NCBI GenBank assembly: GCA_905234565.1
Contig: CAJOHW010000028.1
Coordinates: forward strand, 9,874 to 73,873
DNA: 64,000 nucleotides
Reading direction: 5' to 3'
DNA from: an uncultured Oscillibacter sp.
GTDB taxonomy: Bacteria; Bacillota; Clostridia; Oscillospirales; Oscillospiraceae
In this document: piece by piece, positions 322 to 28,150 of the stretch
Position numbering within the stretch: the stretch's first letter is position 1
How the letters are laid out: each line of letters opens with the position of its first letter
Translations under genes and position numbers: made by a program
Notes under the pieces: generated by a model
Database searches by the model: none
Seen by the model: the letters and a program-made list of their open reading frames with translations, nothing else
Told to the model about the DNA's origin: nothing

Positions 322-2190
322 TTATCCCCCGGCGTGAGCGTATTTCTTCACGAAATCGTCTATGGCCAAGGGCTTGGAGAAATAGTAGCCTTGCAGGTAG
401 TCCGCCCCCAGGTCGCACAGGGCATCCGCCATTTCCTCCGTCTCAATGCCCTCCGCCGTAACCGTATAGTCCATCTCCTTGAAAGCCCGCACCACTGTGG
501 GCAGGAGAATGTCCCGGTCGTGGAAATAGCTCCACACCACTTCCATGTCCAGCTTGATGTTCACAAAGGGATACTGTTTCACCCGGGTCAGGTTGGAGTA
601 GCCGCTGCCGTAGTCATCTAAGGAGAACAGGAAGCCGTTCTCCCGGAGGATCCGGATCTGCTGTTCCAGGAGGGAGATGTCCAGCACCGCCTGCTCCGTG
701 ATCTCCAAGTGGATGACCTCCGCCGGAATGCCGTACTGGTCCAGAATGGTCAAAAACCGCTGGCTCAAGTCCTTGCGCATACACTGAATGGGGGACAGGT
801 TCACGTTCAGCCAAGACAGGCCCATGGCCTTCAAGTCATGGTCCCGGACAAACTGACAGGCTTTCTCTAAAATCTGCTCCCCCATAAGGTTGATGTACCC
901 GGTGCGCTCCGCGATGGGCACAAAGAGGCTGGGGGGCAGAATCCGCCCCTCCTCGTCCCGGATGCGGCACAGCACCTCCGCCCCGGACAGAGTCCGGGTT
1001 CTGCCGTCGATGAGGGGTTGGAGGAAGATCTCCACCTCGTTGCGCTCCACCGCCCGCTCCAAGGCCCGCTTTACGTCCACCTGACGGCCCATCTCCAAAA
1101 TACTGTCGGATTCGATGAGGCCCCCGGTGTCCGGAAGCAGGCCTTTTGTGTTGTCAAAGGCCATATAGAGACGGTTGAGGATGCCGTCCGCCGTGGCCAG
1201 GTCCGATTCCTCCCCGATCTCCACAAAGGCGATATTCAGATCCAGCTCCGCCTGGTCCGCCGCCCAGGGGGACTGGAACCGGTCATAGATGTCCGTGCGG
1301 ATCCGCTCCCAGTCCATGGACTGGGACCCCAGCAGGGCAAACCGCCCGCTGCGCAGATAAAACGCCTGGCACTCCGGAAACGTGTCCACCAGATACCGGC
1401 CAATCAAGGCCATGCCCCGGTCCATCTGCCGCCCGCCGTAGATTCCCCGGGTGTCGATGTAGTCCAGAATGGCGAAGGACAGGATCCGATAGGCCTTCTG
1501 CCGCTCCCGCAGAGCCTCCCGGAAGGCCCTGCCGTTGAAGGCGCTGCCCCGGTTGGACAGGTACAGCAGCGGGTTTTCAAAGGACAGAAACAGGAGGATC
1601 CCCCCCATGAGGCAGAAGGTCTCCCCCAGGGGCCGGGTGGCGTGGAAGATCCGGGCCAGGTTTCCCGCCAGAAGCATATGCTGGCAGAATACCGCCGAAA
1701 AGTATTCGCTGCGGTGCAGGAGGCCGGAGTGGCCCCGGATCAGGCGCAGGGATTCCATGGCGCACAGGCACTCCAGGCCGTGGGGCACCGCCCACAGATA
1801 CTCCGGAAGCAGTCCCGCCGTCACGGCCTCCATCAGGCACACCATGAGAATCTGGGCAAGGCCGAAGCCCGTCCAGGCCATGCGGGTCTGCCGGGGGACG
1901 GGGTCCAGGTGCAGGACCTGTACGGTGAAGCGGAGAAACCACCAGGACCGGGACAGGGACACCATCACGGACAGGGCGCACAGGAGATACACCCCGGCGC
2001 CCGGGGTTTCCGGATTGCTCAATGCCGCCCGGGTGAAGGCCAGGCCGCACACCGGAGCCAGGGTTTGCAGCACCAGCAGTTCCAGGAACACCCGGTTCCG
2101 GCGGCTTTTCAGCCGGGGCATGGCAAAGGTGTACGCCAGGATCACCAGCATCACCATGGTATTGGGCACCGCGTAAGTATCGTTCCACAT
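322..2190 (-). CDS. Membrane-anchored degenerate-GGDEF / EAL domain protein (putative c-di-GMP phosphodiesterase)
   Basis: 622-aa ORF. The N-terminal ~200 aa are hydrophobic helices. The middle GGDEF-like domain has RSGRF in place of GGDEF. The C-terminal EAL domain carries EIFLQPLI, DDYGSGYSNL, IKLD and EGIETEE motifs. Confidence 0.85.
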   Translation of the reverse strand: MWNDTYAVPNTMVMLVILAYTFAMPRLKSRRNRVFLELLVLQTLAPVCGLAFTRAALSNPETPGAGVYLLCALSVMVSLSRSWWFLRFTVQVLHLDPVPRQTRMAWTGFGLAQILMVCLMEAVTAGLLPEYLWAVPHGLECLCAMESLRLIRGHSGLLHRSEYFSAVFCQHMLLAGNLARIFHATRPLGETFCLMGGILLFLSFENPLLYLSNRGSAFNGRAFREALRERQKAYRILSFAILDYIDTRGIYGGRQMDRGMALIGRYLVDTFPECQAFYLRSGRFALLGSQSMDWERIRTDIYDRFQSPWAADQAELDLNIAFVEIGEESDLATADGILNRLYMAFDNTKGLLPDTGGLIESDSILEMGRQVDVKRALERAVERNEVEIFLQPLIDGRTRTLSGAEVLCRIRDEEGRILPPSLFVPIAERTGYINLMGEQILEKACQFVRDHDLKAMGLSWLNVNLSPIQCMRKDLSQRFLTILDQYGIPAEVIHLEITEQAVLDISLLEQQIRILRENGFLFSLDDYGSGYSNLTRVKQYPFVNIKLDMEVVWSYFHDRDILLPTVVRAFKEMDYTVTAEGIETEEMADALCDLGADYLQGYYFSKPLAIDDFVKKYAHAGG

Positions 2191-2441
2191 AGGCCTCTCC
2201 GTTCCTTCGGCGCGTTTCCTCTGCCGTCTCTCCCGCGTTTTGGGCAGCTTGATCTTTTTTCTCTCTACCTACTTTCCCATTCTTATAGTATATCACAGTC
2301 CGCCCCGGGCCGCAACTTTCTTTTCTGCGCTTTGCGCTTTCTTTTACGCTGTGATTGCACTTTGTTTCGCGTTGCTTTTGCCCCGCCGGAGGTGTATGAT
2401 AGGACCATCATCCGGAAGGGATTCACGGGAAGGAGCTTGTC

Positions 2442-2861
2442 ATGGAAAATCGGGAACCGGAGCTGCTGAAACTTCAGCGCAAAACCCTCTTTTACGCCCG
2501 TCTGGCCTGTTTCGCGGCGTCGATTTTGCTCTTGGCCTCCGTTGCGGCGGGGATTTTCGCGGCGGGAACCCTCCGCCGGGCGGAACACGCCCTGGAAACC
2601 GTCAACGATGTCCTCACCGCCGCCGGAACCCAGGACGCGGTCCGGTCCATAGCGGAGATCTCCCGGCGTTTGGAGGGACTGGATCTGGAGCGGCTGAACC
2701 AGGCCCTGGAAACCCTGGACGGGGCGGATCTCAGCCGCCTGGATGAGGCCCTGGAACTGCTGGACAGCGTGGACTTTGCCAAGCTCAACGAGGCCATCTC
2801 CCGCCTGGACTCCATCACCGGGCCTCTGTCCCGCTTTGCGAACCTGTGGGAGAGCCGCTGA
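2442..2861 (+). CDS. Small single-pass membrane protein with tandem ~15-aa L-E-x-L-D...L-x-x-L repeats (function unknown)
   Basis: 139-aa ORF with an SD (ggaaggag) 6 nt upstream. One TM segment (LACFAASILLLASVAAGIFAAG), then LEGLDLERLNQA / LETLDGADLSRLDEA / LELLDSVDFAKLNEA / ISRLDSI. Confidence 0.55.
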   Translation: MENREPELLKLQRKTLFYARLACFAASILLLASVAAGIFAAGTLRRAEHALETVNDVLTAAGTQDAVRSIAEISRRLEGLDLERLNQALETLDGADLSRLDEALELLDSVDFAKLNEAISRLDSITGPLSRFANLWESR

Positions 2862-2907
2862 GCGCACACATCTCAGCGCATACAAAAGAGAGAGGAGGGG
2901 GACGGCT

Positions 2908-3489
2908 GTGGCGGATACCTGGGAGGATCTGGAACGGGAGTGCGGACAGTGCCGGGGGTGCGCCCTGGCGGAACGGCGGACCCAGGTGGTCTTTGGCACC
3001 GGGTCCCGGACGGCGGAGATCCTGCTCATCGGAGAGGGCCCCGGACGGAATGAGGACCTTCAGGGGATCCCCTTTGTGGGGGCGGCGGGGCAGCTGCTGG
3101 ACGAGATGCTGGAAATGATCGGCCTGGACCGGACCAAGGTCTACATTGCCAACGTGGTGAAATGCCGTCCCCCGGGGAACCGGGATCCCCTGAACACGGA
3201 ACAGGCCGTGTGCCTGCCCTGGCTCCGGCGTCAGACCGCCCTGCTGCGGCCCAAACTCATCGTCTGTCTGGGACGCATCGCGGCGAAGGCCATTATCAAG
3301 GAGGACTTCCGCATTGCCGCCGAGCATGGCCAGTGGTTTCAGAGGGGCGGCGTGTATCTGACCGCCATTTACCATCCTGCGGCTCTGCTGCGGGATTTGG
3401 GAAAGCGTCCGGAGACTTTTGAGGACTTGAAAGCCATTCAGGGGAAAATCCGGGAGATCTGCTCTAAGACCGAACTGTCCGTGCCGTGA
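2908..3489 (+). CDS. Uracil-DNA glycosylase, family 4
   Basis: GTG at 2908 preceded by aggaggggg. Motifs CGQCRGCAL, LLIGEGPGRNEDLQGIPFVGAAGQLL and ANVVKCRPPGNRDP are typical of family-4 UDG. The upstream part of the 2743 ORF overlaps the preceding gene and is unlikely to be coding. Confidence 0.85.
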   Translation: MADTWEDLERECGQCRGCALAERRTQVVFGTGSRTAEILLIGEGPGRNEDLQGIPFVGAAGQLLDEMLEMIGLDRTKVYIANVVKCRPPGNRDPLNTEQAVCLPWLRRQTALLRPKLIVCLGRIAAKAIIKEDFRIAAEHGQWFQRGGVYLTAIYHPAALLRDLGKRPETFEDLKAIQGKIREICSKTELSVP

Positions 3490-3515
3490 AAGCACAAGGC
3501 CGAAAAACGAAAAGA

Positions 3516-3556
3516 AACGCCCCGGCGGAACCGCAGTCTCCACCGGGGCGTTTTCT
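3516..3556. terminator. Bidirectional rho-independent terminator between convergent genes
   Basis: aacgccccgg ... ccggggcgtt stem followed by a tttt run. Confidence 0.6.
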
Positions 3557-3577
3557 ATCTTTAAGAATCCGGTTTTC

Positions 3578-4021
3578 TCACCGGGCCTGGGCCAGGATCT
3601 CATAGAGAATCCGGTAGAGGGCCTGGCCGTCCTCTATGGACAGGGGCGTGGTCTCCGCAATGCGGACCGGGATCTTCACCGCCTGGTCCCGCAGGGCCAT
3701 GCCCGTCTCCGTGGGCGACACCAGCAGGCTCCGCTCATCCTCCGGATCCCGCCGCCGGGTGAGATACCCCTTGGATTCCAGACGTTTGAGCAGAGGGGTC
3801 AAGGTGCCGGAGTCCAAGTGCAGCATCCCCCCCAGGGCCTTGGCCGTGACACAGCCGTGTTCCCACAGGACCATCATGGTCAAATACTGGGTATAGGTCA
3901 GCCCTAAGGGATCCAACAGGGATTTGTACTGCCGGATGATCTCCCGGGAACAGGCATACAGGGGAAAGCACAGCTGGTTTTCCAGCCGGAGGCTTTCATA
4001 TGGGGTGCTTTGCGGGATCAC
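3578..4021 (-). CDS. ohrR: MarR-family organic-hydroperoxide-sensing repressor (OhrR-like)
   Basis: LENQLCFPLYACSREIIRQYKSLLDPLGLTYTQYLTMMVLWEH...LDSGTLTPLLKRLESKGYLTRRRDPEDERS closely follows B. subtilis OhrR, including the reactive Cys in the LCF motif. I chose the GTG at 4021, 5 nt after the flavodoxin stop; the track's TTG at 4060 would overlap flavodoxin. Confidence 0.8.
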   Translation of the reverse strand: MIPQSTPYESLRLENQLCFPLYACSREIIRQYKSLLDPLGLTYTQYLTMMVLWEHGCVTAKALGGMLHLDSGTLTPLLKRLESKGYLTRRRDPEDERSLLVSPTETGMALRDQAVKIPVRIAETTPLSIEDGQALYRILYEILAQAR

Positions 4022-4445: not shown

Positions 4446-4543
4446 GGACTGTCCTCTCCTTCCGTTTCTCTCCCGCCCCGAATGAGCGGGACGGGATGCC
4501 TTGTGCTTTCCGGGCGCTGAGCGCCCCTGATGGAACCCGTTTT

Positions 4544-4810
4544 TTACGGTTCCCCGCTCTGGGCGGCCCGGGCCGCCTGGACCGCTTTGGCCAGCTGGTC
4601 GCCGCAGGAGGTGTTTTTCGCCCCGCAGCGGATGCCGGAGAGCTTCTCGGCCACCTGGTCCACCGTCAGCCCCTCCACCAGAATGGGAATGGCTTTCAGA
4701 TTGCCGTCGCACCCGCCAAAAAAGCGGACGTTGTGGACCGTGTCCCCGTCCAGGTCCAGACTGATCTGCCGGGCGCAGGTGCCCCGGGTCTGATAGTCGA
4801 AATGCGTCAT
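4544..4810 (-). CDS. TSCPD-domain protein (TIGR03905-like small protein)
   Basis: MTHFDYQTRGTCARQISLDLDGDTVHNVRFFGGCDGNLKAIPILVEGLTVDQV...GIRCGAKNTSCGDQLAKAV, 88 aa, ATG at 4810. Confidence 0.7.
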   Translation of the reverse strand: MTHFDYQTRGTCARQISLDLDGDTVHNVRFFGGCDGNLKAIPILVEGLTVDQVAEKLSGIRCGAKNTSCGDQLAKAVQAARAAQSGEP

Positions 4811-4944
4811 CACACTGCCTCCGTTTTTGCAAAGGAATTGCGCACAATTTATATCTATCCGTATTGTACACACAAGCCCGCCCCTTGTCAAGCCCCCGTA
4901 ACAGGCAAAATCCACAGCGCCTCCCGGGAAAGTTCAGGTTTCTC

Positions 4945-4973
4945 TTGTAAAAATAGACGGTTTGTGGTATGAT
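4945..4973 (+). promoter_or_regulatory. Sigma-A-type promoter for the ATPase cassette
   Basis: TTGTAA (4945-4950), 17-nt spacer, TGgTATGAT extended -10 (TATGAT at 4968-4973), 45 nt upstream of the ATG at 5019. Confidence 0.5.
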
Positions 4974-5018
4974 ATAGGGAGAGGGTTCATATCGTTCGGA
5001 ACAGGAGGCGCTGGCACT

Positions 5019-6410
5019 ATGGAAAACCGCTGGACACTGCATATTGAGGAATTCGGACGGATCAAGGAGGCCGACGTGACGGTGGGGCCCCTGACGCTGT
5101 TCGTGGGGGACAACAACAGCGGTAAGAGCTATTTGATGGCGTTGATCTATGCCCTGCTGGGATTAGACTTTGGCCCTTTTGACTTTATGCGTCCTGAGAA
5201 CAGCTTTGACTTGTGTCGGGAATCCCCCGCCTATGAAAAGTGCATGGAATGGATCCAAGCCGGAATCGAAGCAGCAAAGTCCAAGGGAGCCGTGCAGCTT
5301 CCCCTCTCCCATGACGCACTTTCATCCTTCAAAGAACTTTTGTGCGCAGTCCTAAAAAAGAACTGGCTCCTAATTTCCAAACTGGCCTTTAACGAAGAAA
5401 TCTCGATTGGGGATATTTCCATTTCCTTTCCCGATACGTACACCCCACAGTATGTGTTTCGATATACCGAGGATTCTGTCAGAGAAAGCCCAACTTTTTA
5501 TCTTTACGTTGGCGGCAGAGACGATCATAACGTCCCAAGCTTGAAAGAAAATGACTATCAGGCCGGACTTTGGGAGCGTTTCCTCCGTTATCTGTTGGGA
5601 AGCCTTGTCAGGCAGGATTTCCGGGATTCCGGCTTACGAGATTTGACCTTTCTCCCCACTTCCCGGACCGGCTTCCTCTTGACCTATCGCACTTTGACGG
5701 GAAACGCGATGGACCAAATGTATCAAGGTGGGAATTTGCTGTATTCTGATCGGCTCACCCGGCCTTGCAGTGACTTTTTAAGCGCTCTTACCTGGATATC
5801 TCCGGAAAACGCAGGCAAAAAATATGTAGATCTCATCCGGTTTATGGAGAAAACCATGTTGGAAGGCCGCATTGTCCGAACCGGTCCCGGGCCGCTGGCC
5901 TCCTACGTCTACAGGCCCTCCGGACAAGATACGGAGATTCCCATGTTCCTGTCCTCCGGCGTGGTGACGGAACTGACACCCCTGCTCCTGATGCTTCAAT
6001 ATAAGCCAGCGCTCTCCACCCTCTTTATTGAGGAACCGGAGATGGCCCTGCACCCGGCCCTGCAAAAGCGGATGGCCCAGGTGCTGATCCGCCTGTGCAA
6101 TACGGGCACCCCCGTGTTCGCCACCACCCACAGCGACACCATTTTGCAGCACGTCAATGACATGATCATGCTCAGCCGCCAGCCGGAAGAACAGCGCAGA
6201 AAGCTGATGGAAACATTTTACTATGAGGAATCGGACCTGATCGGGGCGGAGGACGTGTCCATGTATGAGCTCACAAACCTGCCGGACGGTTCCTCCTCCC
6301 TCCACGCCTGTTCCGCCTATGAATATGGCTTTGAGGTTCCCCGATTTATCGATGCCCTGGATCAGATGCTGAACGAATCCCGGGCCTTTGAGCCGGATCC
6401 GGAGGCGTGA
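5019..6410 (+). CDS. ABC/OLD-class AAA ATPase (AAA_15/AAA_21-like), defence-type architecture
   Basis: SD aggagg lies 10 nt upstream of the ATG at 5019. Walker A is LFVGDNNSGKSYL, Walker B/D-loop is LFIEEPEMALHP, then ATTHSD. A long variable insert lies between the Walker motifs. The N-terminal half is markedly AT-rich. Confidence 0.8.
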   Translation: MENRWTLHIEEFGRIKEADVTVGPLTLFVGDNNSGKSYLMALIYALLGLDFGPFDFMRPENSFDLCRESPAYEKCMEWIQAGIEAAKSKGAVQLPLSHDALSSFKELLCAVLKKNWLLISKLAFNEEISIGDISISFPDTYTPQYVFRYTEDSVRESPTFYLYVGGRDDHNVPSLKENDYQAGLWERFLRYLLGSLVRQDFRDSGLRDLTFLPTSRTGFLLTYRTLTGNAMDQMYQGGNLLYSDRLTRPCSDFLSALTWISPENAGKKYVDLIRFMEKTMLEGRIVRTGPGPLASYVYRPSGQDTEIPMFLSSGVVTELTPLLLMLQYKPALSTLFIEEPEMALHPALQKRMAQVLIRLCNTGTPVFATTHSDTILQHVNDMIMLSRQPEEQRRKLMETFYYEESDLIGAEDVSMYELTNLPDGSSSLHACSAYEYGFEVPRFIDALDQMLNESRAFEPDPEA

Positions 6411-6411
6411 C

Positions 6412-7050
6412 ATGATACGGTTTACCAAAGAACTGGATCCGTTTTTTGATCTGCTGGATCCGAAAAAATGCATCTACTATGGCCCGGGACAGTCCTTTGA
6501 CCTGATAGAGAAGAAAAAAGGCGGAGAGGCAAAAATTACCGTGAAGAGCACAGCGTTTCCCTGTTTTTATGTGCCCAACGCGGACGATTTCTGTCGGTTC
6601 CTTCTGCTGAATGAGGACGCGGTGACAGGCAGAGAGCGGGTACGCCGGTGCGCGGATCATATGGTGTTCGTGTATGATCCCGGCACAGGGCGCTGGTCCG
6701 TCCATCTCTTTGAACTGACCAAATCCGTCTCCCAGAGCGTTTGGGAGGAAAAAGTCCTGGTGCAGTTCACCGGGGCGCTGATCCGGGCCTGCGCCGTGGC
6801 CGGAGTTTTGCAAATCCACGGCTTCCTCCACCTCTATCTGCACTGCGGCTTCCGAAACAGCGCCGCTTCCGCCAATTTCGCGGAAAAACGGCGCAGACTG
6901 GGAAAAGCCGCCCCGTCGGACTGGCAAAACGATTCAGTCATTCTCTACGCCCCATTTCACGGGAAGGAGTTTCAGCAAATCCTCAAAAACTGCCCCCTCC
7001 AACTGGACCGGGACACCGGGTTCGCAGAACTGGAAAGCCTGGAACTGTAA
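6412..7050 (+). CDS. Hypothetical 212-aa protein translationally coupled to the ATPase (candidate effector)
   Basis: The ATG at 6412 sits 1 nt after the ATPase TGA and is preceded by ggaggcg. I recognise no domain. It contains a weak VFVYD-x11-ELTK string. Confidence 0.6.
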   Translation: MIRFTKELDPFFDLLDPKKCIYYGPGQSFDLIEKKKGGEAKITVKSTAFPCFYVPNADDFCRFLLLNEDAVTGRERVRRCADHMVFVYDPGTGRWSVHLFELTKSVSQSVWEEKVLVQFTGALIRACAVAGVLQIHGFLHLYLHCGFRNSAASANFAEKRRRLGKAAPSDWQNDSVILYAPFHGKEFQQILKNCPLQLDRDTGFAELESLEL

Positions 7051-7103
7051 CCGCTGCCCCCACTCCCCATTTTCCCCGTCTCCTCCAACCGTCCGTTAAA
7101 GTT

Positions 7104-7129
7104 TTCACGGGATTTCTTGTGCCCGTGAA
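7104..7129 (+). terminator. Hairpin downstream of the cassette (possible terminator)
   Basis: ttcacggg-atttcttgtg-cccgtgaa: perfect 8-bp stem with only a weak T-tract after it. Confidence 0.35.
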
Positions 7130-7203
7130 CGATCAGCTTTCCCGTCCGCTGCCGTGCCAGTGAGTTGAAATGTGGCAAATCTGAAAGAGCGCGAATAAAA
7201 CAA
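7116..7203 (+). repeat. Interspersed repeat family, copy A (ends just before the hppA SD)
   Basis: tttcccgtccgctgccgtgccagtgagttgaaatgtggcaaatctgaaagagcgcgaataaaaca is ~85% identical by eye to 27164-27245. Its two ends recur at 36060-36096. Confidence 0.55.
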
Positions 7204-7215
7204 GGAGGGCTGAAC

Positions 7216-9327
<2,112 letters not shown>

Positions 9328-9345
9328 CCAATTCACTCGAAATAC

Positions 9346-9380
9346 AAGGGGCCTCCGGCTTTGCCGGAGGCCCCTTTTGT
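9346..9380. terminator. Bidirectional rho-independent terminator
   Basis: aaggggcctccgg-ctttg-ccggaggcccctt followed by ttgt; lies between convergent hppA and the SLH gene. Confidence 0.6.
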
Positions 9381-9394
9381 AATGCGCTGTACCT

Positions 9395-11536
9395 TTACGC
9401 CACGGCCCGATAGAGAATCGCGGCCATTTGCAGCCGGGTCAAAGTGCCGCTGGGGTTCAGACGCCCCTGGGCGTCGCCGTTGAACACGCCCATGCGGGCT
9501 AAAGCTCCCATGGCCTCTACGGCGTAGTAGGGCACGTCGTACCAGTCGGAGAACCGGGCCAGGTCCACATAGCCTCCCGGGGTCACGGTGCCGTAGCGCT
9601 CCATGCACCGGTACAGCAGCAGCGCCGCGGACTGGCGGGTAATGGGGGTGTCCGGCAGGAAGTACCGGGTGGCGTCCGTAATGCCCACGGCCCGGGCCCC
9701 CGCAATGGCCTCCGCGTAGTACATGGAGGTGTTTACGTCCTCATAGCCTCCGTTGCCGGGGTAAGGGGGAATCCCGTACAGCCGGGCCAGCACCGTGACG
9801 AAGGCCCCCCGGCGGGCGGGGCCGTCCGGCTCATAGGTGGAGGGGGTGACGCCGTTGAGGACGCCGTAGGTCCGGAAGAAGTCCACGGCGGGCACCGCCC
9901 AGGTCCGATCCGAGGTCCGCAGGTCCGAAAAGTACCGGGAATAGGTGGGCGGCGTCACGGAGATCCGCAGATAGCTGCTGTACACCCGGTTCTGACGGTT
10001 CCGGGCGGTGTAGCGGATCCGGGCGGTGCCGGAGAAGTCGTGGGCGGGCAGGAAGGACACCTGGCGTAAAGTGTCAGCGGTGTACAGGGTCTCCGGGTCA
10101 AAGGACGAGTAGATCCCCGGGGACAGGAAGTGGGTCAAAAGCCGCCCCTGGGCCGGATCCGGCTCTTGCAGCTGGATGGACACCACGTCCCCAATGATAG
10201 GCTCGGACTGGGCAAGGATCTCTGAGGCGTTCAGGGTCACGGCGGGGCCTGTGGAGAGGAAGGCGGAGGCGGCGTCGGACCAGCCGGTGCTCTCCGTGGC
10301 ACTCACCACGATGGTGATCCGCCCCTCAAAGGACGTGCCCCGGTTGTCATAGCCGCTGTAAAGGAAGGAGACGGTCCCCGTATAGCCCTCCGGGGCAGCA
10401 TAGTTCACGTTGTCCAGCAGGGACGCGCCGCCGGTGCGGTAATAGGAGGTTCCCGTGCTGACGCTCCGGCTCTCCCCATAGTAGAGGCTCCCCACAGCGG
10501 GCCGGGCCCGGAAGCGCACATAGTCCAGTTCCCGGCCTGTGGCGGTGCGGCTGGCGTTGGAGAAGTCGGAGGCGAAGAAGTACACCCGTTTCCCGCTGGC
10601 CACGGTGTACTCGATCTCGCTGCCCGCCCCCTCGTCCACGTCAATGTAAATCCGGGCGGTGAAGGACCGCCCCCGGGTGTTGACCCCGGTGAAGTTGATG
10701 GAAAAGGAGCCGGTATAGTCCTCGTCCGCCTCAAAGCTCAAAAGGGCGATCCGGTTGCTGCCGGAGCGGTTGAACTCGTCCCCGGTGTCCACCTCCGTGG
10801 TCCGGTTGTAGTACACCGTCCCCCGGGAGGCGGAGGGAAGAGAGGTAAAGTAGATGTAATCCAGCTGCTGCCCCGTGCGGTCGTAGCACTCCTCCTCAAA
10901 ATCCGCCAGGAGAAAGTCCACACGGCCCCCGGGGGAGGTCTCGTAGTTCAGCCGCTCCCGGTCCTCGCCGGAGGAGGAACTGACAGAGCCTTTGGCCTCC
11001 GGGTTGTTCACGTACATCCGGACCACACCCTGGAAACTGCGGCCCTCCGTGTCATAGCCTGTGAAGGACAGGGTGAAGTTCCCGGCGTACTCGGGGTTTG
11101 GCACAAAGGCCACGCCGTTGATGGAGGGGGACAGGGTGCGGTAATAGCGGGTGGAGGACTGGATGGGCTGTTCATACACGCTGGCGCTGACGTAGTTATA
11201 ATAGAGGGTGCCGCAGCGGGCGCTGGGCAGGCTGAAGGTGACGTATTGCAAAGAGCGGTTGGTCAGGGCCATGGCGTAGCGGAAGAAGTCCTCGGACCGG
11301 AAGCGGATCACCGCGCCGTTGTGGGAGGAATAAGACAGGGTTGCCTCGTCCTGCTCCACGGAGATGAGGATGGACCCGGTAAAGGACCGCTCGTTCTCGC
11401 TGTACCCCGTGTAGGAAACCCGCACGTTCCCGGAGGATCCGGCCTTGGGCAGGAAGGTCAGGTTCTCGATCTGATAGGGCCCGCTGCCGCCGTCATAGTA
11501 CAGGCGGGTGGCCTCCCTCGGACACGTACCCGTCAT
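9395..11536 (-). CDS. Cell-surface repeat protein with three C-terminal SLH domains (C-terminal portion; probably continuous with 11493..12818)
   Basis: Five or more ~100-aa repeats (pattern L-x-Y-h-x-F...G-x-L-Y-Y...Y-T-G...F-x-Y-x-G-x-D...G-x-S-F). These are followed by SLH-like segments (FSDL...WAVPAVDFF, YEDV...YYAEAIAGA, DVPYYAVEAMGALARMGVFNGD). It has no signal peptide of its own. Confidence 0.7.
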   Translation of the reverse strand: MTGTCPREATRLYYDGGSGPYQIENLTFLPKAGSSGNVRVSYTGYSENERSFTGSILISVEQDEATLSYSSHNGAVIRFRSEDFFRYAMALTNRSLQYVTFSLPSARCGTLYYNYVSASVYEQPIQSSTRYYRTLSPSINGVAFVPNPEYAGNFTLSFTGYDTEGRSFQGVVRMYVNNPEAKGSVSSSSGEDRERLNYETSPGGRVDFLLADFEEECYDRTGQQLDYIYFTSLPSASRGTVYYNRTTEVDTGDEFNRSGSNRIALLSFEADEDYTGSFSINFTGVNTRGRSFTARIYIDVDEGAGSEIEYTVASGKRVYFFASDFSNASRTATGRELDYVRFRARPAVGSLYYGESRSVSTGTSYYRTGGASLLDNVNYAAPEGYTGTVSFLYSGYDNRGTSFEGRITIVVSATESTGWSDAASAFLSTGPAVTLNASEILAQSEPIIGDVVSIQLQEPDPAQGRLLTHFLSPGIYSSFDPETLYTADTLRQVSFLPAHDFSGTARIRYTARNRQNRVYSSYLRISVTPPTYSRYFSDLRTSDRTWAVPAVDFFRTYGVLNGVTPSTYEPDGPARRGAFVTVLARLYGIPPYPGNGGYEDVNTSMYYAEAIAGARAVGITDATRYFLPDTPITRQSAALLLYRCMERYGTVTPGGYVDLARFSDWYDVPYYAVEAMGALARMGVFNGDAQGRLNPSGTLTRLQMAAILYRAVA

Positions 11537-12818
11537 ACAGGATCCCCAGATCCGTCCGGACGGAAAGGCTCGTGATGCTGCGCAGGTCCTCTCCCGTCAG
11601 TTTCTTACACATCTCCCGCAGATCCGGCAGAAGATCCGCAAAGCTCAACGCCCCGTTTTTCAAAGACGCGAATACGGTGGTGTCCTCATTGGTGGCCACC
11701 GTCACCTGGCAGGAGGCGGAAAAGCCTCCGCCGGTACAGGTGATGACGGCGCTGCCGTTGGCCACCGCCTGGACCACCGCCTCCCGCTCACTGGTCTCCG
11801 CCCGCCGCACCAGGGCCACCCCGGTGTTGCTGCTGCTCCACTGCCAGCTGGTACCCGTCACGTTCTCCGCCTCTCCAAAGACGCTGAGGGTCAGCATGGA
11901 GGCGGTGTTGGTGTCCATCTCCAAGTTTGTCGGCGACAGGGTGATGCCGGACACCGTCACCTGACAGACGGCGGGGTCCCCGGTGCCCACCTGGGCCTGG
12001 ACGGTGGTGGTGCCCGGGCCGATGCCCGTGACCACCACGGACTCCCCGGTGTTGGCGGACAGTTCCACCACGCCGGTATCCCGGACGGTCCAGGTGATAT
12101 ACTTGGGATCCACCACCGGGATCACGCTGGCAGTCCGCAGGCGGGTGGAACTGCCCTTGCGCAAAGACGCAATCACGGAGTCGGACAGGGACACCCGGGC
12201 GGCCAGAATCACCGTCACCTGACAGGAGGCGGTATAGTCCCCGCAGGTGCAAGTGACCAGTGTCGTGCCCGGATCCCGGGCGGTGAGCAGGGCGCTGCCG
12301 TCCTCCCGAGGCTCCACCGCCACCAGGGCCGGGTCCACAGGGGCCCAGGACCAGCTGTCCGCCTCCTCCGCCTTCCCGTAGCGGGTCATGGTCAGGACCT
12401 GCTCCTGGGCGGTGGTCAGGGACACGGTGGTGTCGGACAGGGCAACGCCGGATACCGTCACCTCACAGGAGGCGGTGTGTTCCTCGTCAATTTGAGCGGT
12501 GACAATGGTTTTTCCCGCCCCGATGGGGGACACGGTGATGGTTTTCCCGGTTTCGGCGGAGATCCGGACCACGGAGGCGTTTCCGGTGGTCCAGGAGAGT
12601 TCCGCGTCCTCCGGCGTCACGGCGGCGGTCAGTTCCAGGGTGCCGTCCGGCTCCAGGACCGCGCTGTCCTGGCTCAGGGCGATGGATACTTCCACGCTGG
12701 GGGGATCGCTCTGGGAATCGGGATCCGTCCCGTCTCCGGTTTCCGCCGCCAGGACGGGCAGGGCCAGCAGGATCGACGCCAGCAGCGCCGTCAGGACGGC
12801 GCGGATGGGATGTTTCAT
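11493..12818 (-). CDS. Secreted protein with tandem Big_2-like Ig domains (N-terminal portion of the split surface protein)
   Basis: Signal peptide MKHPIRAVLTALLASILLALPVLAAE, SD AAGGAGG. Four repeats of the type VTVSPIGAGKTIVTAQ...ASCEVTV. The last 20 aa already start the downstream repeat pattern. Confidence 0.7.
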   Translation of the reverse strand: MKHPIRAVLTALLASILLALPVLAAETGDGTDPDSQSDPPSVEVSIALSQDSAVLEPDGTLELTAAVTPEDAELSWTTGNASVVRISAETGKTITVSPIGAGKTIVTAQIDEEHTASCEVTVSGVALSDTTVSLTTAQEQVLTMTRYGKAEEADSWSWAPVDPALVAVEPREDGSALLTARDPGTTLVTCTCGDYTASCQVTVILAARVSLSDSVIASLRKGSSTRLRTASVIPVVDPKYITWTVRDTGVVELSANTGESVVVTGIGPGTTTVQAQVGTGDPAVCQVTVSGITLSPTNLEMDTNTASMLTLSVFGEAENVTGTSWQWSSSNTGVALVRRAETSEREAVVQAVANGSAVITCTGGGFSASCQVTVATNEDTTVFASLKNGALSFADLLPDLREMCKKLTGEDLRSITSLSVRTDLGILYDGYVSEGGHPPVL

Positions 12819-12898: not shown

Positions 12899-15800
12899 TT
12901 AGCGGCCGTCCCAATCCTCATTGATCTGGACCTGACAGGTGTAGGTCCCTGTCCCGTCCTCCGCGGGACGGATCAGCAGGTTCACATCCAGCCCCGTGTC
13001 CCGCATATTGCCGAACTGGTCGCACAACTCCGTCTTGAAGCTGATGAAGGACCGGTCCCGCACCCCGTTGCACACCAGGGTCAAGGTCCGGGTGGACACG
13101 CCCGTCAGGCTGTCAGACTGCAGCATGACAATGGGGTAGTCCGACGTACGGGAGAACACCACAGTCTCCGCCCCCACAAAGCCCGGATAGTCGCCGCGGC
13201 GGCCGCCGCTGGTCAGGCCGTTGTCCACCTGCTTCAGTCTCGGCGGCGTCACACTGGTATCCCGGTACCACAGCGTCTCGTCAAAGGTCAGGACCACCGT
13301 GCCATTGATGAGGGTGCCGGTACTGTCTACGGTCAGGTTGGACTGAACCCGGATGACGCTGGGGGGAATCAGGTCCGGCTGCACCAGGGGATAGACCGAC
13401 AGGAAGGTCCTGCCCGTGGAACTGGACACCGTGGCAATGAGGGCATAGTCCCCGGGCTTCGCGTCGAAGTCCTCACAGTCCACGGCATACCAGCTTCCAG
13501 CCGTGACCTCAACGCCGTGGCCCACGCCCAGAATGGCGGTGTTGGCCTCGGCGCTTCGCAGATAGGCCGCCATCTGGCTGCGGGCGGAGTCTCCGGCGTA
13601 GGCGTCAAAGACCGTGCCCTGGGCGGAATCCGCCGGGTCCACGGGGGTGTTCATGGCCTGGAGAACCGTCTCGATTTTGGCGTAAGCGGGGAACTCCGCC
13701 GGGGCCTCCCGGTTCCCGGAGGGGAAGGCCCCCCAGAAGGACCGGGTGAACAGTTCGCCAAGGCCGTCCAAACTGGCAAGCATATAATCCAAGGTCACGT
13801 TCTGGCTGGGGGAGAGGTTGGCGGTGGAGCCGGTCAAATCGTAGGACAGCACCGGCAGGGCCTCCGCCTCCGTGTGGAAATAGAAGAGCTGGGCGTACTG
13901 GGAGTAGTTCTGCCCGCTGCCCTGTAAGACGAAATAGGCGAAGTAGTCCGTGTCGGACCGCAGTCCCTCAACGGGAACAGGCAGGATCCCCTGTCCGGCG
14001 CTGACGCTGCCGGTTTTCACCGTCTCGTCCTCAAAGGGCATATGCACCACGTCCAAATACGTGGGCTGGCTCAGGTAGAAGGGGTCCTCCACCGCCCCGC
14101 CCCGGGGCACAGAGGCGGCGTCCAGGGCATCTAAATACGCGCCGCTCAAATCCCGGGTCAGCACAGTGCCGTCCGCCGGGGCGATGACGTAGTACACCGT
14201 ACCCGTCCGGTCCAGCCGGAGGATCATATCCATGCGGGTGTCCGACGGCCGGAACTGGGGGTAGCGGGGGTAGAAATCGGGCACCACCGTGCCGGAATAG
14301 GCCCGGGACATCTCAAAGGGATCGGGATAGGTCAGATCCTGGCCCTTTTCCAGGAAGGCGTTATAGGAATCCTGGTCGATGTTGTGGGCCAGATCCCCGA
14401 TGTCCGTATAGTTCCCCGCGATGACGGAGATCCGGAACCGGACGGTCTTGTTCCAGTTGGACCGGAGGGGATCCCCGTTCAGGGACCGGACATGGATGGC
14501 GTACTCATAGACCCGGTCGTCCCGCAGGTTGGACAGGGCCAGCAGTTCTCCCGCCTGGCTGCCGTTCAGGTCTAAATGGAGGCTCCGGCCATGGAAGGAA
14601 CCTTCCTCCCCGCTGACCACGGCAATCCGCCCTACGCCGCCGCTGGCGCTCAGGCTGCCCAGACGCCGCCAGTTGTAGTCATACTCGCTGGAATCCGCGG
14701 GGCGGCTGCGGACAAACATCTCGAAATCCAGAGACGTGTCCGCCCAGATCACCATGTCCCAGCAGGCGTCCCCGTCGGACCGGGCGGTGGAGGTGGGGGT
14801 CACGGAGAACGCCGCGTCCACCGTGTCGATGTCCGGGGGATACTGGGAGGTCCGCAGGGTCAGGGATTTCAGATCCGCCTGGGCGGGCCGGGTGGTGAAG
14901 GGGCCAAGCCAGGTGTCGTCCATGGGGTTCACCGTGGGCAGCGCCGTGTCCGACAGGTCCGTCAGGCGGAAGCGGTAACTGGTGCCGCTGCGAAGGTTCA
15001 ACGCGCTGTCCGTACTCCTTGTGGGGAAGGTAATGACCGTGCGGCCGTCCTCGTTCTCAATGGTGGCAAAGCGGTAGTCCACGGTCCAGTCCCCCTCCGC
15101 CAGGGACGCCGGGCCGTACTCCGGCGCCGGCGAATCCCCCCGGTAGAGCCGCACCGTGGCCCGAAGGCAGGCGGCCAGGGCCTCCCGGGCGTCGTCCAGT
15201 TCCGCTTTGGCATCTTCCAGGGCGGAAAGGCCAGGGATTCCGGCCGCCTCCGCCTCCGATACCGCCGCCTCCGCCGCCTTCACCCGGTCGTAGAACTCCG
15301 TCAGGATCTGTCCCGTGTTCTGCCGCTGGACCTCCTCGCTGAACACCACCCGGATGTCCGTATCCGCCAGAGGCACGGCGGCGTTCTCCTCATCGTGGAT
15401 GGTGTATTCCAGTTCCGCCGTGGGGGGCACGGTATCCTGGGTCTGGGCGGTGATGAGGCACTTCCCCCGAAGGCTGTCCCGGTCCCCGGCGGAGAGCGCC
15501 GCCTCAATGGGAAACTCAGAGGTGTTTCCGGACGGGTCCTGGGCGAAGTACCAGATGTCGTAAGAGGTCTGGGGGTTCAGCCCGGGCACAGTGAAATAGG
15601 CCTCTTTCCGGGCATCGGCGCTGCCGGAGCCGTACTGGAAGGACAGCTTGCCGGAGCGGATCTGTTCCTGGGCGTGTTCCGCCGTAATGGAGCCGCCGCC
15701 GGTGGGCCGGGGGGGATAGTCCGTCCCCGTCACCACCGCCGCCCAGTATACCGACGCCTCCTCACTGACGGCATAGGTAAACGTCAGGGAGGTGGGCAGA

Positions 15801-16600
15801 ATGGTCTGGATCTGGGGGGCCTTGGTGAACACGGGGCTGACGCTGTCCACGGTCATGAGCGGCACCACATGGATCTGGGAGTTGGAGGCGAAATCCGGGT
15901 CGGTCAGCCACATATGGACCTGATAGCTGGTCAGCTGGCGCAAATCGGACAGCCGCAGGGTATAGGCCCGTCCGGCGGACAAGGCCACCGTGCCGCTGTC
16001 TAAGGCCCCGGGAATCACGTTGGTGCGGAAGTGGTTCATGGTGACATTGGCCCCGTCCCGGGTCAGCGCCCAGCGCAGAGAACAGGTCTTGTCCGCCGTG
16101 ACGGTGATCCAGGCGTAGCACCGGTTCTCCTGGGAGGAGTTGGAATCAAAGGTATTGGCGACGAGTTCCGGAAAGACGGAGAAGGACGGGGGCTCGTTGT
16201 CCGGATCTGGCACGGCCAGGGGCCAGGCGGGGCCAGCAGGGGCTCCGGAGGGGTCAATGGCCAGGAGCTTCCCCTCCGCCGGAGCGTTGTCGGCAGTCCA
16301 GGAGAGTTTCTTGGAGTGGACGTTGCTGGCAGCGGCGTCCAGAGGCTCCGGGTTCAGGGCGGTGACGGAGCGCATCCGGCCCTGGGCGTCGTACTCCGCG
16401 AAGTACAGCGCCCCCAGGGATTCCGTGGTCCAGTAGTAGAGGGTGGTGTCCGTCTCCCCGGAGCGCAGATACCCGCTGGCCGCGAACGTTTCCGCGGCGT
16501 CCGCCAAAACAGCGGGGGCCTCCCCCTCCGCCGCCAGGGCGGAGAGGGGGAGGAGGGCCAGCAGAACCAGGCAAAAGGAACATTGAAAAATCCGTTTCAT
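12899..16600 (-). CDS. Large secreted surface protein (1233 aa), paralog of the SLH protein but lacking SLH domains
   Basis: ATG at 16600 (MKRIFQCSFCLVLLALLPLSALAAEGE signal peptide), SD GGAG, 2 nt after the upstream stop. FN3-like modules (TSYDIWYFAQDPSGN). Long blocks are alignable to 16603..21750. Confidence 0.8.
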   Translation of the reverse strand: MKRIFQCSFCLVLLALLPLSALAAEGEAPAVLADAAETFAASGYLRSGETDTTLYYWTTESLGALYFAEYDAQGRMRSVTALNPEPLDAAASNVHSKKLSWTADNAPAEGKLLAIDPSGAPAGPAWPLAVPDPDNEPPSFSVFPELVANTFDSNSSQENRCYAWITVTADKTCSLRWALTRDGANVTMNHFRTNVIPGALDSGTVALSAGRAYTLRLSDLRQLTSYQVHMWLTDPDFASNSQIHVVPLMTVDSVSPVFTKAPQIQTILPTSLTFTYAVSEEASVYWAAVVTGTDYPPRPTGGGSITAEHAQEQIRSGKLSFQYGSGSADARKEAYFTVPGLNPQTSYDIWYFAQDPSGNTSEFPIEAALSAGDRDSLRGKCLITAQTQDTVPPTAELEYTIHDEENAAVPLADTDIRVVFSEEVQRQNTGQILTEFYDRVKAAEAAVSEAEAAGIPGLSALEDAKAELDDAREALAACLRATVRLYRGDSPAPEYGPASLAEGDWTVDYRFATIENEDGRTVITFPTRSTDSALNLRSGTSYRFRLTDLSDTALPTVNPMDDTWLGPFTTRPAQADLKSLTLRTSQYPPDIDTVDAAFSVTPTSTARSDGDACWDMVIWADTSLDFEMFVRSRPADSSEYDYNWRRLGSLSASGGVGRIAVVSGEEGSFHGRSLHLDLNGSQAGELLALSNLRDDRVYEYAIHVRSLNGDPLRSNWNKTVRFRISVIAGNYTDIGDLAHNIDQDSYNAFLEKGQDLTYPDPFEMSRAYSGTVVPDFYPRYPQFRPSDTRMDMILRLDRTGTVYYVIAPADGTVLTRDLSGAYLDALDAASVPRGGAVEDPFYLSQPTYLDVVHMPFEDETVKTGSVSAGQGILPVPVEGLRSDTDYFAYFVLQGSGQNYSQYAQLFYFHTEAEALPVLSYDLTGSTANLSPSQNVTLDYMLASLDGLGELFTRSFWGAFPSGNREAPAEFPAYAKIETVLQAMNTPVDPADSAQGTVFDAYAGDSARSQMAAYLRSAEANTAILGVGHGVEVTAGSWYAVDCEDFDAKPGDYALIATVSSSTGRTFLSVYPLVQPDLIPPSVIRVQSNLTVDSTGTLINGTVVLTFDETLWYRDTSVTPPRLKQVDNGLTSGGRRGDYPGFVGAETVVFSRTSDYPIVMLQSDSLTGVSTRTLTLVCNGVRDRSFISFKTELCDQFGNMRDTGLDVNLLIRPAEDGTGTYTCQVQINEDWDGR

Positions 16601-16602
16601 AC

Positions 16603-19600
16603 TCACTCCGTGGCGTTTTGCCGTCCGTCCCAGGCCGGGGTGATATGCACCACCGGCGTGGACACCGCCGTGTAGATGGGTTCGCCGGTCAGGGGATCCC
16701 AGTCCTCCACGGTGCGGACCTTTTGGATCTCAATGGACACCGTCAGAGGCGAGGAACGCACGTTGCTGTACTGGTCGCACAGGTCCGCGTTGAAGGTGAT
16801 GAAGGTGCCGTCCTGGGCGTGGTCGAAGGCGAAGTCGATGGTCAGGGTCTGTCGGCCCACCTGGCTGTCGCTGAGCATGAGGCCCACGGCGGTGGCGTCG
16901 GATTCGCTCTGGACCAGGGAGCCGATGCTGATGAAGTTGCTGTACGCCCCCTCCTGCCGGGCGGAGGTCAGGATGCTGCCCCGGTCCACCTGCCGGAGGG
17001 TAGGCGGCGCGGTGGAGTCGTCGCTGTGGAAGAGGTACTCGTTGAAGGTCAGGGACACCCGGCCGCTGCACGTGTCTAAGGTCTTGGTGTTGCCCTGGGC
17101 GTCGGTGGTCTTGTCCATGGTCAGGGTGGACTGGACGGCGGTGACCACCGGGGCCTCGTTGTCCACCAGGGTCAGGGGGTAGATGCCCCGGAAGGCGTCG
17201 CCGGAACCGGAGGGGCTGCGGCCCACGGCCAGGAAGGCGTACTGGGCCCGCTCGCTCATGGGATACTCGCTGCAGTCCACCCGGTGCCGTATCCCCGGGT
17301 TCACCTCAATGCCGTGGCCCACGCCGATGATGGTGCCCGCGGTGTTGGCGGCGGAGGCCCGGATGTACTCCGCCAGCTGGTCTTTGTAGGTTTGGGTGGC
17401 GTACTTGTCAAAGACGCTGCCCTGGCCGTTGTCGTCGGTACTGGCAAGGTTGGTGGACATGGCCTGGAGGACGTTGGTAATCCCGGCGTAGTTGCGGTAG
17501 GAGGAGGGGGCCGGGATGTTGCCGCAGGGGTCGTTGTTCCAGAAGGCCCGGCTTAAGAGATTGCTCAGGGCGGAGGAGTTGTAGTTCACCACCATGAAGT
17601 CCACGGAGGCCTCCCGGTTGGTGCCGATGTTCACCACGGGGTTGGCGAGATCCAGGGTCAGGACCGGGCGGCGGACCTCCGTGGTGGTAAAGCGGTAGAG
17701 CTGCACATACCGGGAATAGGTCTGGCCCGTGCCCCGGATGACAAAGTAGGCGAAGTAGTCCGTCTCCGGAATCAGCCCTGCCACCGTCACGGACACGGAG
17801 CCGGAGGTGATGTTGGTGGAGCCCGTGCGGATGTCCGGATTGTCATACTCCGGGTTCACGATTTCCAGATACGGCGGGACGCTGACCTCAAAGGGGGCCA
17901 GGGGGATGGACTGTCCGTTCTCGTCCCGGATCTCGTTGCCGGAGCTGTCCAAACGCACATCGCTGCCGCTGGAGGGGATCTCGTCGTGGCGGTTCCAGTC
18001 CACCACGATGCCGTCCAGGTCCCGGGTGGTGATGGTGCCGTCCGCCGGGGCCAGGGCATAGAACACGGTGCCGATCCGGCTGATTTGCAGCCGCATCTCC
18101 ACGCTCACGTCCCCGGGCTCAAAGATGGGCCGCCCGGAGGAGAAGCTGGGAGCCACGGTGTCCAGGAAGCGGCGGGTCAGGCGGAAGCCCAGATCGGAGG
18201 GATTGCCCACCTCAAAGACGGATTCCTCCCGCTTGTCCTGGGCGAAGCGGTCCTCGGTGATGTTGGCGGCCAGGTTGTACAGGTTCACGGACACGCCGGA
18301 CACCACGGAGATATAGAAGTTCACCTCCTGGCTCCAGCCAGTGCGGTCGTTGTCGCCGTTGACCTCCAAAAACCGGATGGCGTACTCATAAATCAGGTTG
18401 TCGGACAGGTCCCGGAGGGCAGGCGTCTCCCCCACGCCGTTGCCGTACAGGTTAAACTGTAAGCTCTGGCCGATGCGCTGGCCCCGCATGGTGGAGGGAA
18501 TGGCCACCCGGCCAATACCGCCGGAGCCGTCCCGGCTCTGCACCCGGTACCAGCCGTTGGCGTCCGTGGCGGGGCCGTCCAGCCCTTCCATGTCCACATG
18601 ATACTCTCCCGTGGGATCCGCGTCCCGGACCCGGGTGTAGACCTCGTACTGGCAGGAGATATCCGACCAGATCAGCATATCCCAGGAGAGGCTGGCGTCC
18701 GCCTGGGCGGTAGAAATGGGCGTGGCGCTGAAACTCATGTCGATGTCCGACACCCCCACGGGATAGCTGGACACCGCTAAGCTGAGGGTGGTCAGGGCCA
18801 CCTCCGAGTCCACAGTCCGGAACCGGGGCAGCCGGGTCAGCTGCATCCGGTTGCGGGAGGAGGACACGTCGGCGATATCTTCCAGCTCAAAGTAGTAGAA
18901 CGTGCCGCTGGCCAGTTTCAGGGCGCTGGTGCCCTGGGTCAGGGGCGTCTCCACCACCGTGGGCAGCAGGATCACCAGATTGGCCTCCTCCATGAACACC
19001 CGGGCGTTGCGGAAGTCAATCACCCAGGGCTCGTTAAGGCGCTCGTTGTTGTAGCTGCGCTCCGGCACCTGAATGGGCAGTCCGGAACTGGGCCGCTCAT
19101 AGAGCCGGATACAGGCCGACAGGGCCTCTCCCAGGGCTTTGCGGGCTTCGTAGAGCTCCGAGGCGCTCTGGGCGGAGGCCACCTGCTCATAGAGATCCAG
19201 GAACCGCTGGCCCGTGGTGTAGCGCTGGATGCCCTCGTTGAACACCAGACGGACGCTGGTGTCGGCGTAGGGGTTGTTCTCCGTGTTCTCCCGCTGGCGG
19301 GTGAACTCCTGGGTGGCGGTGGGAGGGATGTTGTCCAGGGTGTTGGCGGTGATCATGCACTCGTTTTTGGGGTTGTTGGGATCGTTGGGGTTGTTGAGAT
19401 CCCCGTCGGGCCAGCGGGAGTAGTTTCCGGCGGTGTCCCGGGCCAGATACCAGATGTCATAGGCGGTCTGGGCGGAGAGACCGGAGACGGTGATGTTGAC
19501 GGGGGTATTGGCCCGGGCGCTGGAAGAGCCAAAGCGCACGGCCCCGATGCCCGTGGAGATCTCGATCTGGGCGTAGGTCTCCGTGACGGTGTCATAGCCC

Positions 19601-21750: not shown

Positions 21751-21757
21751 AGACACC

Positions 21758-28091: not shown

Positions 28092-28150
28092 GACACTCCC
28101 CGCTCCCGCAGGGGGCGGGGATGGGATACATAAGCAAAGGAGGGGCGCAG

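Follow-up and report, generated by a model that had tools for sequence, protein, structure and literature searches.

A two-gene cassette of an uncultured Oscillibacter sp. as a probable distant, so far unannotated branch of the PD-T4-4/WonAB class

Does an ATPase of the type found in anti-phage systems, when coupled to a small partner that annotation tools leave unrecognised, signal a new kind of bacterial immune module or a distant version of a known one? This question is raised by a two-gene cassette in a 64,000-nucleotide stretch of contig CAJOHW010000028.1 from an uncultured Oscillibacter sp. (the whole stretch henceforth termed the window). The cassette consists of a 463-residue ATPase (gene 1) directly followed by a 212-residue partner (gene 2). 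A sequence-only reading of the window had proposed an unclassified phage-defence system in which a known sensor ATPase could be paired with a new effector type. The two open reading frames (ORFs), the Shine-Dalgarno sequence of gene 2, and the Walker A, Walker B, and TTHSD motifs of the ATPase are all present as that reading described them (Table 1). Here, we report that the pair most likely is a distant, so far unannotated branch of the PD-T4-4/WonAB class and no new kind of system. Probably, it is a horizontally acquired two-gene anti-phage module of this class, composed of a sensor ATPase and a coupled nuclease effector.

Gene 1 is an intact ATP-binding cassette (ABC) ATPase of the OLD/PtuA/AriA clade without a fused nuclease. 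It matches the Pfam families AAA_15 (E = 8.8e-20) and AAA_21 (2.1e-14), and its top match among the PADLOC models is PD-T4-4_A (PDLC04033, 3.6e-34, 117 bits). Next in rank are PDC-M47A (1.3e-29) and AriA (1.4e-21), with further matches to NsnB, Old (9.5e-15), HEC ATPases, and GajA (ca. 1e-10). A sequence search of the PDB gave one notable match, the class 2 OLD nuclease 6p74 (1.7e-6). An AlphaFold2 model built with 32 homologues (predicted local distance difference test, pLDDT, 85) was matched by Foldseek to PtuA (Septu, retron Ec78/IA), AriA (PARIS), retron Eco8, and Rad50/SMC heads with E values of 1e-11 to 1e-9. The assignment to a defence-type OLD/ABC ATPase made from the sequence alone is borne out by these matches. 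Across the alignment of the 32 homologues, Walker A, a PxxRTGF element, the LSSGV signature, FIEEPE, and THSD are invariant; PxxRTGF replaces the Q-loop, and its R216 is the counterpart of R182 in WonA. NCBIfam returned sub-threshold matches alone (retron Eco8, MADS3, PtuA, and transporters), limited to the motif regions. A role as a transport ABC ATPase was rejected because the transporter matches are weak and restricted to these regions.

The partner is matched by no model in Pfam, PADLOC (E<=1), NCBIfam, or PHROGs, and automated tools would therefore leave gene 2 unclassified, in line with the earlier label of an unclassified system. A word-indexed protein search with gene 2 retrieved a single relative (49% identity), whose short contig shows the same order, with an ATPase homologue (44% identity to gene 1) preceding the relative. 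With a two-sequence profile of gene 2 and this relative, an exhaustive HMMER search (E<=1e-3) recovered representatives of at least 148 family clusters, defined at 50% identity, nearly all of them 185-215 residues in length. Alignment of 204 sequences to a hidden Markov model (HMM) of the family revealed conserved residues at E33, D82, E101, position 103, and Q118, as well as at positions 98 and 171 (Table 1). As read from this alignment, the signature of the family, D...E-x-K...Q, is of the PD-(D/E)xK type. A VFVYD-x11-ELTK string had been singled out earlier as a vague hint of such nucleases. ELTK is the real motif, but the aspartate of VFVYD, D89, is not conserved across the family, and the conserved acidic residue is D82. 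Gene 2 of the window deviates from most relatives by carrying T103/K104. Threonine or serine at position 103 occurs in 18 of the 204 sequences (9%), including two Brachyspira copies. Since 16 of these 18 have lysine or arginine at the following position, the substitution looks like a tolerated lysine shift, not decay.

The AlphaFold2 model of gene 2 is confident (pLDDT 91; predicted template modelling score 0.88). In this model, D82 is located at the start of one strand and E101/K104 in the next, after which come a long helix with Q118 and a further strand. This predicted order, strand (D), strand (ExK), long helix, strand, fits the core of restriction endonucleases (REases). The best Foldseek match is the REase PaqCI (E=0.016, template modelling score 0.17), and the other weak matches, comprising NucS/EndoMS, R.BspD6I, HamA, SgrAI, MunI, UL24, and Mrr-like proteins, lean to restriction folds. 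Judging by the model, gene 2 likely adopts a restriction-endonuclease fold.

Which known system the pair is related to is indicated by comparison with PD-T4-4. This system, which emerged from a functional selection for resistance to T4, combines the ATPase PD-T4-4_A with the PD-(D/E)xK nuclease PD-T4-4_B (Vassallo et al. 2022, PMC9519451), and it has been placed with complex-forming systems of a PD-(D/E)xK nuclease and an NTPase (bioRxiv 10.1101/2025.07.10.664194). In PADLOC, PD-T4-4 is represented by the models PDLC04032-37. A tblastn search of plasmids with gene 1 led to plasmids of Escherichia and Klebsiella and to one of Bernardetia on which two genes are arranged in the same way, and PADLOC types these plasmid pairs as bona fide PD-T4-4 (A 2.9e-260, B 6.1e-108). 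Both arrangements are two-gene operons in which the ATPase precedes a partner of ca. 205-210 residues with a gap of 1-3 nt. The ATPases have the same length and align over their full length at 23-25% identity, with PD-T4-4_A being the best PADLOC family for gene 1. The PD-T4-4_B proteins on plasmids (206-210 residues) share with the gene 2 family not only their size but also the motif order E...C-x-D...(D/E)-x-K...Q. On the Klebsiella pneumoniae plasmid pKPN6 (NC_009652.1), the bona fide pair (1622-3680) makes up about half of the 4.26-kb ColE1-type replicon, whose other annotated genes are rop and a gene for a helix-turn-helix protein only; near-identical Klebsiella plasmids of 4.2-7.9 kb recur among the matches.

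At the profile level, hhalign aligned the gene 2 family with the PD-T4-4_B alignment over 100 columns (probability 64.7%, P=6.2e-5), pairing all four motif positions in register (E33/E32, CAD/CSD, ExK/(D/E)xK, and Q/Q). A PD-T4-4_B HMM was searched against 3730 ORFs from the fetched loci and the family members, a database of which the gene 2 family makes up 5.5%. Among the 81 matches at E<=1, 73 belong to the gene 2 family, and the first apparent outsider is a partner protein on a viral contig. Gene 1 is a remote homologue of its PD-T4-4 counterpart, and gene 2 probably is one as well. Because of this probable homology to PD-T4-4_B and the same architecture, gene 2 is probably not the new effector type that the sequence-only reading had envisaged; its family carries a D...ExK...Q signature. 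The relationship is distant nonetheless: gene 1 scores 117 bits against 862 for a true PD-T4-4_A member, gene 2 of the window has ELTK in place of ExK, and PD-T4-4 is found in Enterobacteria or Bacteroidota, whereas the gene 2 family occurs mainly in gut Firmicutes and Brachyspira.

The WonAB system follows the logic proposed for the cassette, combining an OLD-type ABC ATPase with a small nuclease of restriction fold (C-x-D...ELK...Q). Its defence depends on both genes, on the ATPase motifs (K34, R182, E300, and H333), and on the nuclease lysine; WonA ATPase mutants lose the WonB protein, and the system works by an abortive infection that does not depend on lysis and takes effect once phage DNA replication has begun (PMC12137116). 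An operon described as 'OLD-ABC ATPase + novel REase' stems from the survey of Krishnan et al. 2020, as cited in PMC12137116. When the WonB and novel REase sequences from the supplement of PMC12137116 were compared with the gene 2 family by hhalign, the motifs were aligned (P=0.0024, probability 12%), a link weaker than that to PD-T4-4_B. A WonB HMM gave no significant match among the locus ORFs and family members. In contrast to the full-length alignment with PD-T4-4_A, gene 1 matches WonA locally alone, in the C-terminal Walker B/H-loop region (BLASTP, E 6e-8 to 2e-5), and the gene 1 family HMM finds WonA at 5e-18 versus 3e-37 to 6e-48 for three PD-T4-4_A proteins. WonAB further differs in the Walker A context (GPQANGKS or GEQSSGKS versus GDNNSGKS in gene 1), in the shorter WonB/novel REase proteins (138-195 residues), and in a variable gene order. 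The NNSGKSY motif of the gene 1 family is absent from the available part of the hit tables of PMC12137116.

Other candidate systems resemble the cassette in part. PDC-M47A, the ATPase component of a phage-defence candidate in PADLOC, is the second-best family of gene 1, and PDC-M47B is the only B-component model of PADLOC touched by the gene 2 family (4 of 61 members, best E 0.0024), yet these matches are far below the level of family members. The PDC-M47B model also cross-matches PD-T4-4_B proteins. A literature search for PDC-M47 found no paper mentioning it. PARIS, Septu, and Gabija/OLD systems have ATPases of the same OLD/ABC clade and the same logic of a sensor ATPase and a nuclease effector. 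Membership in PARIS was rejected because neither gene 2 nor its family has a Pfam or PADLOC match to AriB (Toprim/DUF4435), and membership in Septu because neither has an HNH match, in agreement with the sequence-only reading, which did not recognise the partner as one of these protein types. A single member of the 61 matched the PADLOC homing-endonuclease model (HEase, E=0.0035). Gabija and class 1-2 OLD systems were rejected as well, since gene 1 shows an ABC ATPase only, without Toprim, and its GajA and Old matches cover the ATPase motifs alone.

The two genes belong together beyond the window. In a survey in which one genome per species was scanned with the ATPase alignment, 80 loci were obtained, and in 67 of them the next ORF downstream on the ATPase strand is a gene 2 family member, identified by HMM match; the two ORFs typically overlap or are no more than ca. 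10 nt apart. The proposal of a coupled two-gene pair is thereby upheld. Hosts are mainly Lachnospiraceae and other Clostridia, together with several Brachyspira species, Selenomonadaceae, Veillonellaceae, Planctomycetes, Bacilli, and others. Six loci contain split ATPase or partner ORFs with apparent frameshifts or stops, which suggests frequent pseudogenisation of the pair. The 13 loci outside these 67 comprise contig ends, solo ATPases, and three loci with other arrangements (L065, L076, and L077). At L065, from a metagenome-assembled genome (MAG) of Synergistaceae (7552-11618), the ATPase homologue lacks a small partner and is flanked by 937- and 925-residue ORFs; the locus may represent another system that draws on ATPases of this family. 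L076 (10012-10692) and L077 (11371-12066), both from Lachnospiraceae MAGs, have downstream partners of ca. 230 residues with AD...DxK-like strings that neither the gene 2 family HMM nor any PADLOC model matched. From their sequences, these partners probably represent one more divergent branch of nucleases that pairs with this ATPase family.

The surroundings of the pair were surveyed in 30 loci, taking two genes on each side. Among the resulting 120 proteins, 184 Pfam families are represented, with ferredoxin, PFOR, and oxidoreductase domains at the top. Strong matches to defence models are few (type II methyltransferases, SoFic, DpdF, and mad3/mad8). Because its neighbours are extremely heterogeneous, the pair constitutes a self-contained two-gene islet outside any larger conserved operon. 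Among viral contigs in IMG/VR, seven carry an ATPase homologue, which mostly sits close to a contig end and in six cases is followed by the partner. Genes for portal, terminase, integrase, holin, endolysin, and tail proteins occur within a distance of 8 kb on such contigs, meaning that some pairs ride on or abut prophages.

Base composition sets the cassette apart within the window. Its GC content is 0.536, whereas the window averages 0.625 +/- 0.029, and this places the cassette among the lowest 1.5% of 2-kb windows; at third codon positions, the cassette genes have a GC content of 0.65-0.66 versus 0.82-0.87 for the flanking genes. On the upstream side, the genes for TSCPD, flavodoxin, and MarR are transcribed divergently, and UDG and EAL genes are located beyond them. 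Downstream lies the gene for an H+-pyrophosphatase (H+-PPase, hppA), and after it come the genes of SLH and Big_2 surface proteins. The previously noted position between redox genes and hppA and the low GC content are both correct. The cassette is foreign by composition and looks horizontally acquired and inserted between housekeeping genes. The varied neighbourhoods of the pair, its copies beside phage genes, and the frameshifted copies elsewhere also speak for mobility.

How would such a module act? Based on homology and architecture, we infer for the pair a nuclease activity, complex formation, a trigger, a substrate, and a defence phenotype. By analogy with WonA, AriA, and PtuA, gene 1 would form a head-to-head dimer enclosing two ATP molecules, and this dimer would serve as infection sensor and regulator. 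The gene 2 nuclease would bind to the ATPase, which would hold it in an inactive state or stabilise it; the candidate catalytic residues of the nuclease are D82, E101, and K104 (most relatives have K103 instead), together with E33 and Q118. A phage cue would then bring about ATP-dependent remodelling that releases or activates the nuclease. Once active, the enzyme would cut nucleic acid and halt phage development, and the infected cell would probably be sacrificed, as in abortive infection.

Several results weigh against an assignment to the PD-T4-4/WonAB class or against a working defence function. The homology between the gene 2 family and PD-T4-4_B is moderately supported, by evidence at the level of profiles. 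Gene 2 of the window is itself matched by no PD-T4-4_B or PDC-M47B model, neither in PADLOC nor with our PD-T4-4_B HMM, and the PD-T4-4_B models of PADLOC match none of 61 family members at E<=0.01. A structure prediction followed by a Foldseek search had been suggested as a check: the model is confident, but nothing significant was found for it in the PDB or in the viral BFVD library. With threonine at position 103, gene 2 of the window is without the canonical lysine, and its predicted catalytic competence is therefore uncertain. Homologous pairs do co-occur, as a proposed survey was to establish, but enrichment in defence islands looks weak, with neighbours that are mostly unrelated housekeeping genes and a handful of defence genes. 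Finally, a metagenome scan with the flanking H+-PPase as query did not find an empty site for the cassette; the closest H+-PPase relatives have at most 76% identity, and none shows synteny with TSCPD, flavodoxin, or MarR genes.

Given these points, other explanations deserve to be weighed. There is some chance, albeit a small one, that the gene 2 family is a functionally distinct effector branch which, together with its own ATPase insert, forms a separate system widespread in gut Firmicutes with a trigger outside that of PD-T4-4/WonAB. Such an effector might, for example, be a lysine-shifted enzyme with REase fold whose substrate differs (RNA, tRNA, or a structured intermediate of replication), or it might have another mode of activation. 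We consider it unlikely that the pair is instead a selfish addiction or mobile-element competition module, similar to toxin-antitoxin or anti-plasmid systems, in which the ATPase restrains a nuclease toxin to the benefit of the carrier element. Bona fide PD-T4-4 pairs do account for the greater part of tiny ColE1-type Klebsiella plasmids and are carried by IncX1 plasmids as well, the AAA_21 annotation reads 'putative AbiEii toxin', and ATPase mutants of WonAB lose the nuclease protein (PMC12137116). The cassette of the window, however, is chromosomal and has no adjacent integrase, transposase, or plasmid genes, and a tblastn search with gene 2 found no copy in phage and plasmid collections. 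Moreover, tested relatives protect against phage (PMC9519451, PMC12137116), and the mechanism of an addiction module overlaps with abortive infection.

Slimmer still is the chance that the cassette is decaying or already inactive in this genome, no longer working after loss of the catalytic lysine by K103T. Both ORFs are intact, tightly coupled, and equipped with Shine-Dalgarno sequences, every ATPase motif is intact, and identical proteins occur on independent metagenome contigs. The threonine in place of the common lysine (Table 1), the frameshifted copies in other genomes, an unconfirmed terminator, and a promoter that is merely plausible would fit a remnant, but the T/S103 variant recurs in 18 members, Brachyspira among them, mostly with a basic residue next to it. 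Highly improbable is a housekeeping ATPase-nuclease module for repair or recombination of the host chromosome, comparable to SbcCD, RecF/RecN, or NucS. The ATPase head resembles those of Rad50, SMC, and RecN, gene 1 gives weak UvrA and RecF matches, a UDG gene is nearby, and NucS/EndoMS is among the weak Foldseek matches of gene 2. Against such a role stand the sporadic distribution in unrelated genomic contexts, the foreign base composition, and the nearest named relatives, all of which are defence ATPases; curated housekeeping models do not include the family, as no NCBIfam equivalog was matched. We thus retain a distant PD-T4-4/WonAB-class module, probably serving in phage defence, as the best explanation.

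The layout of the cassette is summarised in Table 1. The two ORFs are intact and co-directional, with a gap of 1 nt between the gene 1 stop and the gene 2 ATG. The positions of this stop and start and of the gene 2 Shine-Dalgarno sequence, inside gene 1, suggest translational coupling. The promoter that the sequence-only reading had assigned to the cassette was found again in a promoter scan, including its extended -10 TG, but the region has two promoter-like sites where 1.4 are expected by chance from shuffled sequence. Since the number of sites is close to chance, this promoter is plausible and falls short of proof. A divergent promoter-like site (TTGACA-17-TACAAT, 11/12 matches, 4863-4891, minus strand) is stronger than the cassette candidate, lies ca. 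55-80 nt upstream of it, and faces the TSCPD-flavodoxin-MarR genes. The hairpin reported downstream of gene 2 is a real 8-bp inverted repeat that is folded in the minimum free energy structure. It was rejected as a canonical terminator since it has no T-run and the terminator scan made no call there, and the surrounding intergenic region folds no better than shuffled sequences (z=+1). Possibly, the repeat acts as a weak terminator or stabiliser. A search of Rfam with positions 4500-7400 matched no RNA family.

Table 1. Features of the two-gene cassette. Positions are nucleotides of the window; residue counts refer to the 204 aligned members of the gene 2 family.
Feature	Position	Strand	Remarks
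Candidate sigma-70-like promoter TTGTAA-N17-(TG)TATGAT	4945-4973	+	promoter scan, 9/12 matches, extended -10 TG
Gene 1 Shine-Dalgarno GGAGG	5004-5008	+	direct reading; M1 start consistent with homologue alignment
Gene 1 (ATPase)	5019-6410	+	ATG 5019, TGA 6408-6410, 463 residues
Gene 1 Walker A GDNNSGKS, G30-S37	5106-5129	+	
Gene 1 LPTSRTGF, R216	5655-5675	+	'Q-loop' equivalent
Gene 1 signature LSSGV	5949-5963	+	
Gene 1 Walker B LFIEEPE	6021-6041	+	
Gene 1 H-loop TTHSD	6123-6137	+	
Gene 2 Shine-Dalgarno GGAGG	6401-6405	+	within 3' end of gene 1
Gene 2 (partner)	6412-7050	+	ATG 6412, 212 residues
Gene 2 E33	6508-6510	+	E in 184/204
Gene 2 D82, motif C80-A81-D82	6649-6657	+	D in 202/204
Gene 2 position 98			H in 183/204
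Gene 2 E101-L-T103-K104	6712-6723	+	E101 in 204/204; position 103 K in 186/204
Gene 2 Q118	6763-6765	+	Q in 178/204, K in 26
Gene 2 position 171			W in 179/204
Inverted repeat, 8 bp	7104-7129	+	3' of gene 2; folded in the minimum free energy structure

Elsewhere in the window, the second-lowest GC stretch (0.51-0.54) coincides with a 514-residue ORF (29211-30755, plus strand) that has no Pfam or Rfam match and lies between CheR/CheB genes (27273-29242) and an FlgK-like gene (31866-34061). Horizontal acquisition or fast evolution may apply to this gene as well, which could encode, for instance, a surface or flagellar protein. An interpretation of this 29.2-30.8 kb region as 16S rRNA was rejected, as Rfam was negative and the region holds a protein-coding ORF. 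Two very large ORFs of 1235 and 1786 residues (12899-21963, minus strand) lie downstream of the SLH and Big_2 proteins; they probably encode cell-surface proteins, and the 1235-residue ORF had no Pfam match at 1e-5.

Pairs of an ABC ATPase and a small nuclease are an emerging large class of bacterial immune modules that annotation tools cover poorly. The branch described here is well populated, with its 148 or more clusters, and common in Lachnospiraceae and Brachyspira. As its effector is invisible to the searched libraries of PADLOC, Pfam, NCBIfam, and PHROGs, such cassettes probably go uncalled in defence censuses of gut microbiomes, and a profile for the gene 2 family would extend the detection of PD-T4-4-type systems in gut Firmicutes. 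The finding opens no new mechanistic category. Its main value lies in annotation coverage and in the lysine-shift variants, where the natural K103T/K104 proteins offer a ready test of how far the active site of this family tolerates a displaced lysine.

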